A program made the position numbers and the translations under genes. Shown here piece after piece: positions 40,913 through 63,720 of a stretch of DNA of 64,000 nt. Each line of letters opens with the position of its first letter. Position 1 is the stretch's first letter. The notes under the pieces were generated by a model, which ran no database searches, had not been told where the DNA came from, and was given only the letters and a program-made list of their open reading frames with translations. Origin of the DNA: a bacterium (lineage in GTDB: Bacteria > Bacillota_I > Bacilli_A > RF39 > UBA660); the NCBI GenBank assembly GCA_029099845.1, contig JAQXOT010000006.1, positions 230-64,229 on the forward strand. Reading direction: 5' to 3'.

Positions 40913-40989
40913 GGCGTCGTTGGTGAAGTGGTTAACACGCTAGTTTGTGGCACTAGTATGCAAGGGTTCGATTCCCTTACGACGCCCCA
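40913..40989 (+). tRNA. tRNA-His (GTG anticodon) with encoded G-1 and CCA
   Basis: Cloverleaf by hand: G-1, acceptor GCGTCGT/ACGACGC, anticodon stem CTAGT/ACTAG with loop TTGTGGC, T-arm AAGGG-TTCGATT-CCCTT, discriminator C, CCA. Confidence 0.9.
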
Positions 40990-59197: not shown

Positions 59198-59983
59198 ACA
59201 TGCCAACTAATATCAAGCACAATAAAAGACACTATTTATTATAAAAATGATATTTATAAATTTCTAAAGTCATTGTTAAATTATGCTACTGATTGGTATG
59301 GTTTCAGTTTCGTACACGTTTATAGAAAAATGCATAACTTTAATAATCCAAATGAATTACCAAAAGAAATGTTATATTTCACTTATGATGAATTTCAAAA
59401 GTTCTTATCTGTTGAAAAAGATATTAAATTTAGATGTGCTTGGCAACTACTCTACTACTGTGGATTAAGAATTGGTGAATTAAAAGGTATCACATGGAAA
59501 GATATAGACTTTGAAAATAGAACTGTTAGTATTAATAAGCAAATAACTCAGCAATCCTGCCGTTCTAAATGGACATTCTCGCCACCAAAAACTGCTAAGA
59601 GTAATAGAGTTCTACCATTAACAAAAGTGCTCTTAAATGACCTAGAAACACTTAAAAAGAGTGATTCTGAATTACTATTTGGATTCAATGATTCATACTT
59701 TGTAATTGGAGATATTGCACCACAAATAAGCAGTACTATTACAGCTAAGAAAAATCGTAATTGTGAACTTGCAGGAGTTAAACAAATAAGGATCCATGAT
59801 TTCAGGCATTCATGTGCTTCCCTACTTATTTATAAAGGTGCTAATATTAATACTGTTTCTAAATTCTTAGGGCATACTAAAATAGAAGAAACTCTTAATA
59901 CATATACACATTTGTATAAGAATGCTCTAACAGATATAACATCACTTATAGATGATATGAATGAAGAATTAGGTAATTCCTAA
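59198..59983 (+). pseudogene. 5'-truncated tyrosine recombinase (phage-type integrase)
   Basis: The catalytic domain is intact (GLRIGE, HDFRHSCAS, GHTKIEETLNTYTHLY), but the frame opens only at 59198, just after a stop. Only about 35 aa of the core-binding domain remain, and there is no canonical start (TTG at 59273). Confidence 0.72.
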
Positions 59984-60028: not shown

Positions 60029-60982
60029 TTATTTTTTTAATATTTTAGCTCTTTCAACAAGTTTAAGCATAGATCCATTTTCTATCATATTATCTATTGA
60101 ACCCTCAGCAATTCTTTCTATATTAAAGATTCTTAAAATCAAGTATGATACTCTTCCAATATCTAAATTATCAAAATCATATTCTTGCCAATCTTCATCA
60201 AAGAATTCAGGATAATTATCACGATTGTAATATTTCTCTTCAATATAATTGTTTTTAACTAAGTATTCTGGAATATCAAAAAATCTCCAATCATAATGTA
60301 ATCCACCCATATAATGAATTTTTTGTCCATCTTCTCCTATAGTATAACTTGGATCAGGAGTAACATATTCTGCTTTTTTATAATCATTTTTTAAATAATC
60401 AACTATTTCATCAATGGAATCAAATCCTCGTTTTTCTTCTCTTTCATATTCTTTATTCATTTTATCTTGTTGTTCAATTGCTTTTTCATATTCATCATCA
60501 GAGTATGCACATAATAAAACATCTATATCATAATCATAATTATCGATTACAAATTTATTATAAGCTTTTATGCAATACTTAGTTGAAATAGCAACAGGAT
60601 CTTCTAAATCTCCACCAAAAATACCAGAACTAATTAAAGGAAATGCTATTGTATGATAATTGTTATTTTTTAACTCAATCAATGAATTATAATATGCATC
60701 ACATAATTCTCCAAAAGCATCAGCTGTTCTTCCAAAATCAGGACCTACGGCATGGATAATAATTTTAGCATTTGTTATATTAAATGCAGGTGTAACTATT
60801 ACTGATCCATCTCTAATTGGTAATTTATATTTATGGCATGCATCATTTAGTTCTGGTCCTGCTTTCATTAAAATTGCACGAGCCACTCCACCACCATGCA
60901 TCATATGACCATTAGCAGCATTAACTATTGCATCAACTTTTTGATTAACACAAGAATCTTTTATTATTTTGAAATTACTCAT
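60029..60982 (-). CDS. MacroD-type macro domain protein fused to an uncharacterised C-terminal domain
   Basis: VDAIVNAANGHMMHGGGVARAI, IIHAVGPDFG and AFPLISSGIFGG are ADP-ribose-binding/hydrolase motifs. The C-terminal ~140 aa are acidic and aromatic and unassigned. Confidence 0.85.
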   Translation of the reverse strand: MSNFKIIKDSCVNQKVDAIVNAANGHMMHGGGVARAILMKAGPELNDACHKYKLPIRDGSVIVTPAFNITNAKIIIHAVGPDFGRTADAFGELCDAYYNSLIELKNNNYHTIAFPLISSGIFGGDLEDPVAISTKYCIKAYNKFVIDNYDYDIDVLLCAYSDDEYEKAIEQQDKMNKEYEREEKRGFDSIDEIVDYLKNDYKKAEYVTPDPSYTIGEDGQKIHYMGGLHYDWRFFDIPEYLVKNNYIEEKYYNRDNYPEFFDEDWQEYDFDNLDIGRVSYLILRIFNIERIAEGSIDNMIENGSMLKLVERAKILKK

Positions 60983-61350: not shown

Positions 61351-61378
61351 AAACAAAAATGAGAGCCAAATGGCTCTC
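61351..61378 (-). terminator. terminator-like hairpin
   Basis: On the minus strand: GAGAGCC-attt-GGCTCTC followed by ATTTTTGTTTT. Confidence 0.5.
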
Positions 61379-61495
61379 TTCAGGGGGAACTTAAAAAAGG
61401 ACTTTCTGGAACTTTACCGAGAGTTACGCACCCTTATAAATAAAGGGATTTGATGTTGTCGGTATAATTTGAAACTTAGCATTTTTTATACCTTT

Positions 61496-61517
61496 TGTCA
61501 CCCAGATGTCACCCAGA
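61496..61517. repeat. tandem 11-mer TGTCACCCAGA x2 (plus partial third ATGTC)
   Basis: Exact tandem duplication read directly from the sequence, about 25 bp from direct-repeat copy A. Confidence 0.9.
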
Positions 61518-61540
61518 AATGTCGCCTATGCGTCCCAAAC

Positions 61541-61566
61541 AAAAACAAGCAATTACTACTTGTTTA
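61541..61566. repeat. 26-bp direct repeat, copy A (AAAAACAAGCAATTACTACTTGTTTA)
   Basis: 25 of 26 positions identical to 63238..63263. It forms an imperfect hairpin and contains the stop codon of the 4-TM gene. Confidence 0.9.
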
Positions 61567-62307
61567 TTTTATGCTATTATGTATCTCATTCCATTTCAAA
61601 CTTAAACTATCTTTGTTCTTTTCAAAGAAACTAGATGAAAGCATTATATGACAATAGCTCTTTATCGTTTCATAATCCATTACATATTCAATAACCAACG
61701 CTAAATCCTTAGTTTCATTATATTTCTTTGTAACAAACAATTTATAAAAGTCATCATATATCTTACTTACATGAATATAATAATAAATCATCTTAATATA
61801 ATTTAATAATACCTCTGCAGAAAATAACCCTTGTACTAGCGTAATAAACATATTACCTTCTTCTATATTAAAGAAGATTATCAGCCACATTATTAGAATA
61901 AATAATATTTTTAAACCATTATATCTTATCATAGAATGTAAGTTTGCCTTAGTATATAAAGTGCTTTCAAAACTATCAACGCCTAATTTCTTAACCGATG
62001 GACTAAATCTATTATTATAATAGTTCTCAGTCTTATTACTAGTAATATCGACTTGAAATGCATCAGCAATCATTGTTTTTCTTCTTTCCTTTTCAGCATC
62101 GCTTTTTAATATTAAATCTGTATAGAATGAAACTGCTATATAGATAATATTTGATGCAAGTAACAAATAAACTATGACAATCGAGTCACAATATGAATTA
62201 GCTATTGACAATAGAAAGACAGCAACAAATAAAAACGATAATACTTTTTCATTTCTCAGTACATTACGATATAGTGCATCTACATCATTTCTATATTTTT
62301 TATCCAT
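61564..62307 (-). CDS. four-TM membrane protein, S-4TM-like (SMODS-associating 4TM effector candidate)
   Basis: 247 aa. TM pair at about residues 24-64, a soluble linker, a second TM pair at about 131-175, and a helical C-terminus. GGAGG RBS; the start is 10 nt after the upstream stop. Confidence 0.55.
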   Translation of the reverse strand: MDKKYRNDVDALYRNVLRNEKVLSFLFVAVFLLSIANSYCDSIVIVYLLLASNIIYIAVSFYTDLILKSDAEKERRKTMIADAFQVDITSNKTENYYNNRFSPSVKKLGVDSFESTLYTKANLHSMIRYNGLKILFILIMWLIIFFNIEEGNMFITLVQGLFSAEVLLNYIKMIYYYIHVSKIYDDFYKLFVTKKYNETKDLALVIEYVMDYETIKSYCHIMLSSSFFEKNKDSLSLKWNEIHNSIK

Positions 62308-62317
62308 TTGTTCCTCC

Positions 62318-63130
62318 CTATGTCTCTGGTAATATTTTTTTTATAGTTTCAATTGCCTTTTCATGATAACCATATTGATCAAATCTTTTTGCTTCTTCAA
62401 TTAAACTCATAGCCTTGTTAATCCTATCTGTTACATACTCATCTATATAAGTATATTGACTAAGATAAAAGAACATCCAATCCAACATAGCTAACAACGT
62501 TTCACAATGTGCTGATGAAGACATAAACTTATTGGTTAAATATTCTTCAAGTTGATATGATTTGTATTTTTTTAAATTCTTTTTAATATTCCAGTACTTA
62601 ATTATCCTAATAGAATTTTTAAATACATAATTGTATTTTTTATTTACTGTCAGCATATCATTACTTAAATCTTCAATATTGGTAGTCTGCCAAGTCTTAT
62701 CGTCCTTTGGAATGTAAATTCTCCCCATACTATCTATGTATGATGGGACTAATTCAAACTTAATGTTTTGTAATTCAATAACTATAGTTGGTGAAGATTG
62801 TTTTACAATTGATGAAGCATACCAAAATTCAGCGAAGCCTTTTAACCAATTTAAACAGGTTTGAGGTGTATAATTCTTACTATCTTCGAAAACTATTAAG
62901 TAGTCAACATCCGAACCATCATCATACTTTCTTGATATTATAGTATCCCTATCATACGAACCAAAAATTCTCTTTTTTACAACTTTATGTATGCATCTAT
63001 TAGGATTGCCAAAATATAAATCAATTCTATCTGACATAGTACTAATAGAAGTCCTTATACGTTGATTCTCATCACCATTTACATACAAATCTGTACACAT
63101 TTTACTTAAATATCCATTTACTGTTTGCAT
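62318..63130 (-). CDS. SMODS/CD-NTase-like nucleotidyltransferase
   Basis: Pol-beta NTase motifs FGSYDRDT...GSDVDYLIVF and IKFELVPSY, then W.TTN and IRIIKYW segments as in SMODS. The likely start is the ATG at 63130, after GGAGG. Confidence 0.65.
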   Translation of the reverse strand: MQTVNGYLSKMCTDLYVNGDENQRIRTSISTMSDRIDLYFGNPNRCIHKVVKKRIFGSYDRDTIISRKYDDGSDVDYLIVFEDSKNYTPQTCLNWLKGFAEFWYASSIVKQSSPTIVIELQNIKFELVPSYIDSMGRIYIPKDDKTWQTTNIEDLSNDMLTVNKKYNYVFKNSIRIIKYWNIKKNLKKYKSYQLEEYLTNKFMSSSAHCETLLAMLDWMFFYLSQYTYIDEYVTDRINKAMSLIEEAKRFDQYGYHEKAIETIKKILPET

Positions 63131-63150
63131 TTCTTCCTCCAATCAAAAAA

Positions 63151-63173
63151 GATATCATAATTCTAATGATATC
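63151..63173. promoter_or_regulatory. perfect 8-bp inverted repeat in the leader of the NTase operon
   Basis: GATATCAT-N7-ATGATATC lies between a TGaTATAAT extended -10 (minus strand) and the RBS. Confidence 0.4.
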
Positions 63174-63237
63174 TGAGCTATTTTAATTATATCACATATC
63201 TTAATTTTATAATAGTCATTGGATACAATTTCGCGAA

Positions 63238-63263
63238 AAAAACAAGCAATTACTGCTTGTTTA
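63238..63263. repeat. 26-bp direct repeat, copy B (AAAAACAAGCAATTACTGCTTGTTTA); also the terminator hairpin of the integrase fragment
   Basis: Perfect 9-bp stem AAACAAGCA/TGCTTGTTT. On the minus strand it is followed by T7. It contains the integrase stop codon. Confidence 0.9.
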
Positions 63264-63720
63264 AATCGTTTATCAGATTCACTATGTCGTCCAATTTATT
63301 TTTAAACATATGTGAATAAGTATTTAGCGTTTCATCAACTTTAGTATGTCCTAAATACTTAGCAACTAAAGTAATATTAGCACCATTATTGATAAGTAAT
63401 GAAGCACATGAATGTCTAAAATCGTGAATTCTTATTTGTTTAACTCCTGCCTTTTTAGCATTGTCATTCTTTCTTCTTCTAAGAAGATCTGGATGTAATG
63501 GATTGATATCTCCAAATACAAACCATTTATCATTAAACCCATAATAATTATGACATTGTTCCTTTAACTTTAATAAATAATTTACTAACACATCAGGCAT
63601 TGGAACAGTTCTCCTACTTGATTTTGTTTTTGGTGTTGTAATATTCCAATATCCAGAATCTCCTTTAGTAATAGAAATATTTTTATTAGGTGTTTTTCCA
63701 TTACTTCCTGTCCATCCCAT
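63250..63720 (-). pseudogene. chimeric ORF: InlB-B-repeat (Flg_new-like) fragment fused to the C-terminal third of a tyrosine integrase
   Basis: The N-terminal GWTGSNGKTPNKNISITKGDSG matches the surface-protein repeat. From about 63650 downward the sequence is integrase-like (PKTKSSRRTVPMP, HDFRHSCAS, GHTKVDETLNTYSH). The first catalytic Arg region is missing. Confidence 0.72.

Follow-up and report, generated by a model that had tools for sequence, protein, structure and literature searches.

A probable type I CBASS operon in a hairpin-bounded cassette of an uncultured Bacillota

Type I with a small membrane effector is the most frequent form of the antiphage signalling system based on cyclic oligonucleotides (CBASS). 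A classification of CBASS that includes type I was reportedly provided by Millman et al. in 2020, and the S_4TM and SLATT effectors are said to go back to Burroughs et al. in 2015. In the published picture of type I CBASS, a cyclase is accompanied by an exchangeable small membrane effector, and phage restriction has been reported for operons with four-transmembrane (4TM) effectors such as EcCdnD12-4TM (bioRxiv 10.1101/2023.05.21.541620). The locus analysed here (61541−63263) lies in a 64,000-nt stretch of contig JAQXOT010000006.1 (GenBank assembly GCA_029099845.1, positions 230−64,229, GTDB lineage Bacillota_I, RF39, UBA660), which as a whole is referred to as the window. It consists of a gene for a cGAS/DncV-like nucleotidyltransferase (CD-NTase) and a gene for a small membrane protein, and is very probably a type I CBASS abortive-infection system.

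Both genes are on the minus strand, the cyclase open reading frame (ORF; ATG to TAG) preceding that of the effector (ATG to TAA). The two are separated by 10 nt (62308−62317), the TAG being followed directly by the GGAGG ribosome-binding site (RBS) of the effector gene, which confirmed the tight coupling noted in the initial annotation of the sequence. The cyclase ORF as listed begins with TTG at 63142; ATG 63130 was taken as the start because it agrees with the N-termini of homologs and sits behind a GGAGG at 63136−63140. These are the only ORFs between the two copies of a hairpin that bound the locus, the neighbours being an integrase pseudogene and a non-coding region termed segment D. No Cap2/Cap3, HORMA/Trip13 or other accessory genes were found among the ORFs between the hairpins or the immediate neighbours. 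Cyclase and effector genes make up a single operon that has an extended −10 promoter of its own, a leader with a conserved palindrome, and a hairpin as terminator.

To assign the cyclase, domain models, profiles and a predicted structure were compared. The Pfam SMODS model (PF18144) matched residues 3−163 over model positions 2−164 of 164 (E = 3.9e-27; 95.9 bits against a cutoff of 26.5), and the PADLOC CBASS cyclase model PDLC00769 matched residues 3−269 over positions 2−260 of 261 (E = 1.6e-67). When a profile of 22 family members was searched against PDB sequences, Pseudomonas aeruginosa CdnD ranked first (1.3e-14), followed by other CD-NTases. For the AlphaFold model (pLDDT 93.5), the top 50 Foldseek matches in the PDB were all CD-NTases, with TM-scores up to 0.81 (0.79 for P. 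aeruginosa CdnD, 6p82), and the fold matched over the full length, the helical C-terminal half included. Together with a Pfam NTP_transf_2 score below its gathering cutoff (16.8 versus 21 bits; E 0.0094), these results upheld the SMODS/CD-NTase identity proposed at the outset. The profile and fold matches to P. aeruginosa CdnD suggest that the enzyme belongs to clade D of the CD-NTases. No extra sensor domain was detected by the Pfam scan or in the AlphaFold model. The protein had been described as short; its 270 aa are slightly under the ~300 aa of solved CD-NTases such as P. aeruginosa CdnD.

The motifs G57-S58, D74-V75-D76 and F125-E126-L127-V128-P129 were present as claimed and were invariant or nearly so in the family, the spacing of the first two being GS-x15-DVD instead of the GS-x13-DVD initially given. 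In 155 aligned cyclase family members, G57, S58, D74 and D76 were invariant, and position 126 was Glu in 149 and Asp in the other 6. E126 aligned with the catalytic Asp in ‘MDVVP’ of the solved CD-NTase 9sa4. Based on this alignment and the restriction of the position to Glu or Asp, Glu126 is the predicted third carboxylate, inside the Pol-beta h[D/E]h motif and as a rule of the family. The Glu had been regarded as a peculiarity of this copy, which its near-universal occurrence contradicts. A relative at locus L039 (797−2767) was called as a 656-aa ORF with the cyclase at residues 1−244 and ~400 further residues that match no family; this may represent a fusion with a second effector, or else an artefact of assembly or of a frameshift.

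The second protein matched the PADLOC CBASS 4TM effector model PDLC00719 (E = 1.2e-46; residues 9−246, model positions 7−254 of 256). Its family was represented by 680 clusters among 1.84 billion proteins, nearly all of ~250 aa. The AlphaFold model (pLDDT 81.6) contained helices at residues 10−39, 43−84, 105−147 and 153−193 plus a two-helix tail, and hydropathy peaks were located at approximately residues 21−44, 41−59 and 126−149, with a weaker peak at 151−174. The Kyte–Doolittle means were 1.8−2.1 for three segments and ~1.1 for the fourth. Transmembrane (TM) helices are therefore supported by hydropathy as well as by the full-length model match, and the 2TM-linker-2TM-helical-tail layout first proposed fits both the structural model and the hydropathy profile, with a reservation about the fourth helix. 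The two hydrophobic helix pairs are joined by a conserved linker of ~65 residues and followed by a conserved helical tail of ~70 residues. The most conserved residues of all were in the TM2−TM3 linker and the tail, and from this conservation we infer that these parts are cytoplasmic and make up the site for the ligand.

The effector had initially been placed with the S-4TM type, which was not supported. Pfam searches of the effector and 15 relatives (16 family members) gave zero matches at E ≤ 10, S_4TM and SLATT_1-6 included, and hhalign of the effector family against an alignment of 10 Pfam S_4TM proteins returned a probability of 2%; PDLC00719 was the model matched instead. Since the PADLOC models span both proteins end to end and Glu126 is the family norm, the pair can be recognised as belonging to a known class and is not the divergent outlier it had been taken for.

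To survey the pairing of the two families, 80 loci with a member of the cyclase family were taken from GTDB genomes. A member of the window's 4TM effector family was directly adjacent to the cyclase at 47 of the 80, usually downstream and sometimes upstream, so the two families are indeed co-located elsewhere. Most of the remaining loci had a membrane protein upstream of the cyclase, of ~288 aa (4 TM) or ~170 aa (2 TM). Of eight partners scanned, three belonged to Pfam S_4TM (E down to 2e-86) and three to the PADLOC 2TM effectors, the latter with a weak resemblance to SLATT_4; the remaining two came from the window's own PDLC00719/726 4TM family and were encoded upstream of the cyclase. With partners of the PDLC00719/726 4TM, S_4TM and SLATT_4-like/2TM kinds, the cyclase family travels with a small membrane effector and swaps it among three unrelated effector families. 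A membrane partner next to the cyclase was kept across phyla.

Pairs matching PDLC00769 and PDLC00719 were also found on plasmids. On the Lactococcus lactis conjugative plasmid pMRC01 (L114, 21584−23131), the pair lies between ISS1 transposase and serine recombinase genes and is annotated just as ‘nucleotidyltransferase domain-containing protein’ and ‘hypothetical protein’; another is on a Bacillus cereus plasmid. Two papers citing pMRC01 contained no link between this pair and the abortive-infection phenotype of the plasmid. Matches on Escherichia coli and Salmonella plasmids were distant and partial (27% identity, E = 7e-6; several hundred records sampled) and were rejected as family evidence. 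Searches of IMG/VR with the cyclase protein, the hairpin pattern and the segment D pattern returned nothing, and an annotated phage collection gave a single distant match, in a Clostridioides phage (42% identity), so that the cassette is not obviously phage-borne. Between copies of the window cassette, the ratio of non-synonymous to synonymous polymorphism (pN/pS) was 0.14−0.29 (small counts), the differences being mostly synonymous.

Upstream of the cyclase gene, the extended −10 element has no good −35 sequence. The leader contains a 9-bp inverted repeat (AGATATCAT-N7-ATGATATCT, 63150−63174) leading into a T-run at 63145−63150; the leader hairpin alone was not unusually stable (z = −1.1). 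The module of an extended −10, (G/A)TATCAT-N7-ATGATA(C/T) and a T-run preceded 14 of the 80 homologous cyclase genes (among L005−L048), compared with a background expectation of 0.0085 per 290 nt. The cyclases at these 14 loci were 33−55% identical to that of the window, and one arm position of the palindrome co-varied with its partner (A-T to G-C). The promoter and palindromic leader described in the initial annotation were thus found and shown to recur. The palindrome would fit either an operator or an attenuator.

The two 26-bp copies that bracket the locus were identical at 25 of 26 positions, in agreement with the direct repeats first reported; a 23-nt hairpin core with ≤3 mismatches is expected by chance 0.01 times per window. 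Each copy forms a hairpin with a 9-bp stem and a 5-nt loop, followed by a T-run. The left copy supplies the final codons and stop of the integrase fragment, and the right copy supplies the stop of the 4TM gene. No Rfam family matched 58500−64000 at E ≤ 1, hence segment D and the hairpins do not belong to a described RNA family.

Metagenome contigs were scanned for the hairpin, which identified four loci. In L087, an integrase stub, one hairpin and segment D follow each other with nothing between. L089, and eight further places for a cyclase variant (L106−L113), showed the L087 neighbourhood with the gene pair present. Sequence identity between L089 and L087 was 99.7% over 7.9 kb of one flank and 99.0% over 6.3 kb of the other; the sole difference was the gene pair plus one hairpin copy, with junctions exact to the base. 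These isogenic occupied and empty contigs support the proposal of a portable cassette: in the window's lineage, the gene pair is inserted or deleted as a single block of 1.7 kb with a hairpin copy at each end. The repeat-bracketed state is confined to that lineage and is not a trait of the family, as flanking repeats or a neighbouring integrase were found at none of the 47 other, more distant cyclase-4TM pairs. The GC content of the cassette (26.7%) compared with that of the window (28.2%) gave no compositional signal of recent import.

Other cargo was found at the same site. L086 (16−2109) has another CBASS operon, in which a 306-aa CD-NTase and a 169-aa E2-like protein accompany a NucC-like nuclease; it is followed by the same hairpin and segment D. 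Its last gene takes the final codons N-K-Q-stop from the hairpin, as the integrase does. This contig begins inside the operon and the left border is outside it. In L088 (422−2588), a GmrSD/HEC-06-like DUF262 gene occupies the position of the CBASS pair and the last 66 nt of the 4TM gene remain before the hairpin, indicating that cargo has been replaced at the site. L100 differs in the stretch from the hairpin to the −10 element of the cassette. Over all contigs, three left flanks and three right flanks join precisely at the hairpin edges.

With regard to the role of the hairpins, we lean slightly towards their being only Rho-independent terminators; the empty L087 would then have lost its cassette secondarily, through slippage or homologous recombination of the 26-bp repeats, and no dedicated machinery would move the cassette. 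Each copy is a hairpin plus T-run coinciding exactly with the end of a gene, and occupied sites are common (8 distinct places among 24 contigs of one cyclase variant, all in this context) against one empty contig. The integrase at the polymorphic site is truncated, its own att site appears to lie elsewhere, at the end of segment D, and the 47 other cyclase-4TM pairs are without flanking repeats. This explanation does not, however, account for the identical hairpin on both sides, for the unrelated CBASS operon of L086 ending at the same hairpin, or for the exact joining of three left and three right flanks at the hairpin edges with cargo ORFs borrowing their stop codons. Because the junctions are precise and reused, a less probable explanation was retained, in which the hairpin AAACAAG[C/T]AGTAATTGCTTGTTTTT (25−26 bp) would possibly serve, beyond termination, as a minimal site-specific recombination site. 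Its inverted arms of 8−9 bp around an asymmetric 5−7 bp spacer resemble a tyrosine recombinase core site. If so, an integrase family of uncultured gut Bacillota would take up and exchange promoter-bearing defence cassettes immediately downstream of its stop codon. Two or more distinct CBASS operons would count among these cassettes, and the whole would amount to a small system of the integron kind that is not part of the IntI/attC family. The C-terminal integrase stubs and the conserved leader palindrome would then be parts of the same cassette economy.

The truncated integrase was compared with related elements. An identical cyclase is present on L001−L003 directly behind an intact 366-aa tyrosine integrase, in an element that also has resolvase and DnaB-like helicase genes. 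The window shares with these contigs only the span 63663−61373, which comprises the last 134 codons of the integrase, hairpin, CBASS pair, hairpin and ~170 nt of the non-coding segment D. The window fragment at 63250−63663 corresponds to residues 233−366 of the 366-aa integrase; residues 1−232, with the first catalytic Arg region, are missing. Being a truncated pseudogene, the adjacent integrase gene cannot move the window cassette. Stubs began at residue 233 in the window and in L087, L089, L085 and L106, at 225 in L100 and at 219 in L099 (6771−7180 in L087, 7947−8345 in L089, 4672−5091 in L100 and 6286−6717 in L099). Each was joined to unrelated upstream DNA, and four independent contexts break within ~45 nt. 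No mechanism was found for the clustering of these truncations at residues 219−233. A systematic split integrase of the SSV type was considered as a general claim and dropped, the fragments in L091 and L101 being frameshifted full-length genes. In the window, the DNA joined to the stub (63664−64000) is a fragment of a B-repeat surface-protein gene (Listeria-Bacteroides repeat-like, ‘GWTGSNG’) with an upstream stop and a frameshift. The region contains a 30-nt direct repeat (63695−63724 and 63915−63944), and its in-frame fusion to the stub was called as an ORF of 156 aa.

On the other side of the cassette, the tandem TCTGGGTGACA of segment D is at 61496−61517 and the end motif CCCCCTGAAGAGAG at 61374−61387, leading into a terminator hairpin at 61361−61378. 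Homology among contigs ends inside this hairpin, the loop of which differs between contigs. The end motif recurs downstream of recG in L002 (~17875) and at other island borders (L088 ~4556; L091 ~8522). In L101, a related integrase is followed by two copies of CTGGGTACCTA and then recG. Segment D probably contains the arm sites and att core of the integrase, and on that premise the position of the CBASS pair, between int and att, would be the one typical of cargo.

Family membership, fold, the conserved pairing of the genes and the presence or absence of the cassette were established in this analysis; the mode of action that can be postulated for the pair draws on the family and on published type I operons. 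The 270-aa CD-NTase would be inactive until it meets a phage-derived cue, and would then make a cyclic di- or oligonucleotide, with Glu126 as the third metal-binding carboxylate. The nucleotide would bind the cytoplasmic parts of the effector, namely the TM2−TM3 linker and the C-terminal helical tail, upon which the effector may oligomerize or open. The membrane would be breached or depolarized, leading to death or arrest of the cell ahead of phage release.

Several observations weigh against this assignment. The NCBIfam equivalogs CBASS_cyclase_a and CBASS_cyclase_b scored 64.6 and 41 bits against a 200-bit cutoff, so by these scores the cyclase is related to them, but is not a member. The fourth membrane helix of the effector is only moderately hydrophobic. 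No PDB relative of the effector was found by sequence (E ≤ 10) or by Foldseek of the model (E ≤ 0.001), and no nucleotide-binding domain could be recognised in it (neither SAVED nor beta-barrel, and no Pfam match); its gating by a ligand is therefore an assumption. Enzymatic or phage-challenge results for this cyclase/4TM subfamily were not found in the literature consulted. Finally, systems with a constitutive ‘decoy’ cyclase and a membrane effector are known (Panoptes, PMC12657218), and homology consequently does not settle whether gain or loss of the signal throws the switch.

The last point leads to a guard of the Panoptes type, in which a constitutive cyclase product would keep the 4TM effector closed until phage sponges or nucleases deplete the nucleotides and release it to kill the cell. 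The two-gene layout of a minimal cyclase, lacking an extra sensor domain, and a small membrane effector is the same, and such a guard has been demonstrated for mCpol with an S-2TM-beta effector (PMC12657218). In addition, the trigger of type I CBASS cyclases is not known, and some are active in vitro without ligand (bioRxiv 10.1101/2023.05.21.541620). The enzyme of the window is, however, a SMODS/CD-NTase and not an mCpol or DAC, its effector is unrelated to S-2TM-beta, and the SMODS plus TM type I operons tested so far act as classical CBASS (bioRxiv 10.1101/2023.05.21.541620), making a guard improbable here. A non-signalling pair, that is, a toxin/antitoxin or antibiotic-modifying nucleotidyltransferase of the MNT/AbiEii/KNTase type beside an unrelated membrane protein, was effectively refuted and is very improbable, as the weak NTP_transf_2, PADLOC PDC-S09 and streptomycin adenylyltransferase matches (the last a single profile match to the PDB, E = 0.028) are set against the sub-cutoff score of the first, SMODS and CBASS cyclase models stronger by tens of orders of magnitude, a full-length CD-NTase fold with its helical C-terminal half, and a membrane partner retained across phyla. 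The features of the type I CBASS locus and its borders are collected in Table 1.

Table 1. Features of the CBASS locus and its borders, listed in the direction of transcription
Feature	Coordinates	Strand	Basis or remarks
Truncated tyrosine-integrase pseudogene	63250..63720	-	Homology to 366-aa integrase; Pfam Phage_integrase (protein P0107)
Left copy of the 26-bp hairpin (TAAACAAGCAGTAATTGCTTGTTTTT, minus strand)	63238..63263	-	Last integrase codons N-K-Q-stop; terminator-shaped
Extended −10 promoter element TGATATAAT	63186..63194	-	Sequence; equivalent TGnTATTAT/TATAAT element in 14 homologous loci
Leader palindrome AGATATCAT-TAGAATT-ATGATATCT running into T-run	63145..63174	-	Between promoter and RBS
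CD-NTase (SMODS) cyclase, 270 aa; predicted catalytic residues G57 S58, D74, D76, E126	62318..63130	-	Pfam, PADLOC, fold
CBASS 4TM membrane effector, 247 aa	61564..62307	-	PADLOC model, predicted structure, hydropathy
Right copy of the 26-bp hairpin (T variant, TAAACAAGTAGTAATTGCTTGTTTTT)	61541..61566	-	Stop codon of the 4TM gene formed by its first three bases
Backbone segment D	61361..61540	-	3' of hairpin with or without cassette; tandem TCTGGGTGACA x2, CCCCCTGAAGAGAG, terminator hairpin

Further features were noted in the surroundings. On the opposite strand at 59273−59983 there is a second integrase fragment (residues ~125−366, 55% identical to the L001 integrase), and the two integrase fragments of the window form a 174-nt inverted repeat of 78% identity (59750−59923 and 63298−63471). 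Between the second fragment and segment D, a Macro + DUF6508 protein is encoded at 60029−60982, with no PADLOC match. Beside the island remnants is a 1307-aa ORF (55211−59134), in which a C-terminal Pfam Metallophos_2 match (2.5e-06) is the only recognisable domain; PADLOC gave no match for this ORF either. No tRNA is near the locus, the only one in the window being tRNA-His at 40914. The rest of the window is chromosomal, with ClpB, HtpG, GlmS and phosphoketolase genes and a GC content of 28%.

As a defence system the locus adds little, and standard tools (PADLOC) would call it. The 4TM effector family, with its 680 clusters, has no Pfam model, solved structure or recognisable ligand domain, and how its members read a nucleotide could be addressed with this compact, apparently intact pair. 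The cyclase family, with its near-universal Glu as third carboxylate and its three unrelated membrane-effector families, offers a clear-cut example of effectors being exchanged. The isogenic occupied and empty contigs, together with the second CBASS operon at the hairpin, provide a well-defined site for the movement of small defence cassettes beside integrase genes. The initial interpretation was essentially right, and what remains to be learned concerns the 4TM effector family and the hairpin-bounded cassette site.

Compared with described systems, the locus is closest to type I CBASS with a 4TM effector, having the same two genes for a CD-NTase and a four-helix effector, full-length PDLC00769 and PDLC00719 matches and no Cap2, Cap3 or HORMA. 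An example of this type tested in E. coli is EcCdnD12-4TM. The window pair differs in that it is from an uncultured low-GC Bacillota chromosome and has Glu as third carboxylate and the order cyclase then effector. With P. aeruginosa CdnD (PDB 6P82/6P8U) and other clade D CD-NTases, the cyclase has in common the Pol-beta core and helical C-terminal lobe, at a sequence identity of 15−16% to P. aeruginosa CdnD. The latter is part of a type III CBASS regulated by HORMA/Trip13, and these genes are absent from the window operon.

Pfam S_4TM (PF18159) and SLATT proteins have a similar layout (TM helices in two pairs, or in a single pair with helical regions added) and are partners of the same cyclase family. 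They show no detectable sequence relationship to the window effector, and their genes are upstream of the cyclase, whereas that of the window effector is downstream. Cap14 and Cap15 are nucleotide-gated membrane effectors of type I CBASS, as proposed for the window effector, and Cap14 is a 2',3'-cGAMP-gated chloride channel (PMC10402079). The sensor is a SAVED domain in Cap14 and a beta-barrel in Cap15, whereas the window effector is all-helical with no recognisable sensor domain. Panoptes (mCpol OptS and S-2TM-beta OptE) is likewise a two-gene operon of a minimal cyclase and a membrane effector; it differs in cyclase fold, effector family and its inverted logic, by which loss of the signal leads to killing. 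The window pair falls outside Panoptes, since its synthase is a SMODS protein and its effector is without beta-barrel, CARF or SAVED.

An integron has an attC site of at least 57 bp with R''-L''/L'-R' boxes and a divergent IntI integrase with attI. The 23−26 bp hairpin of the window has no RYYYAAC/GTTRRRY boxes, which places the cassette outside the integron cassettes. Defence hotspots near integrases are known, for example in P2 and P4 (PMC9122126). Like integron cassettes, phage morons and the P2/P4 hotspots, the locus is self-contained cargo with a promoter and terminator beside a tyrosine recombinase gene, is present or absent in otherwise identical backbones, and has a short palindrome overlapping the stop of the cargo ORF. 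Unlike that of integrons, the window integrase has the same direction of transcription as the cargo and is of the phage type (PF00589) and truncated, and only two cassette types were seen at the site.

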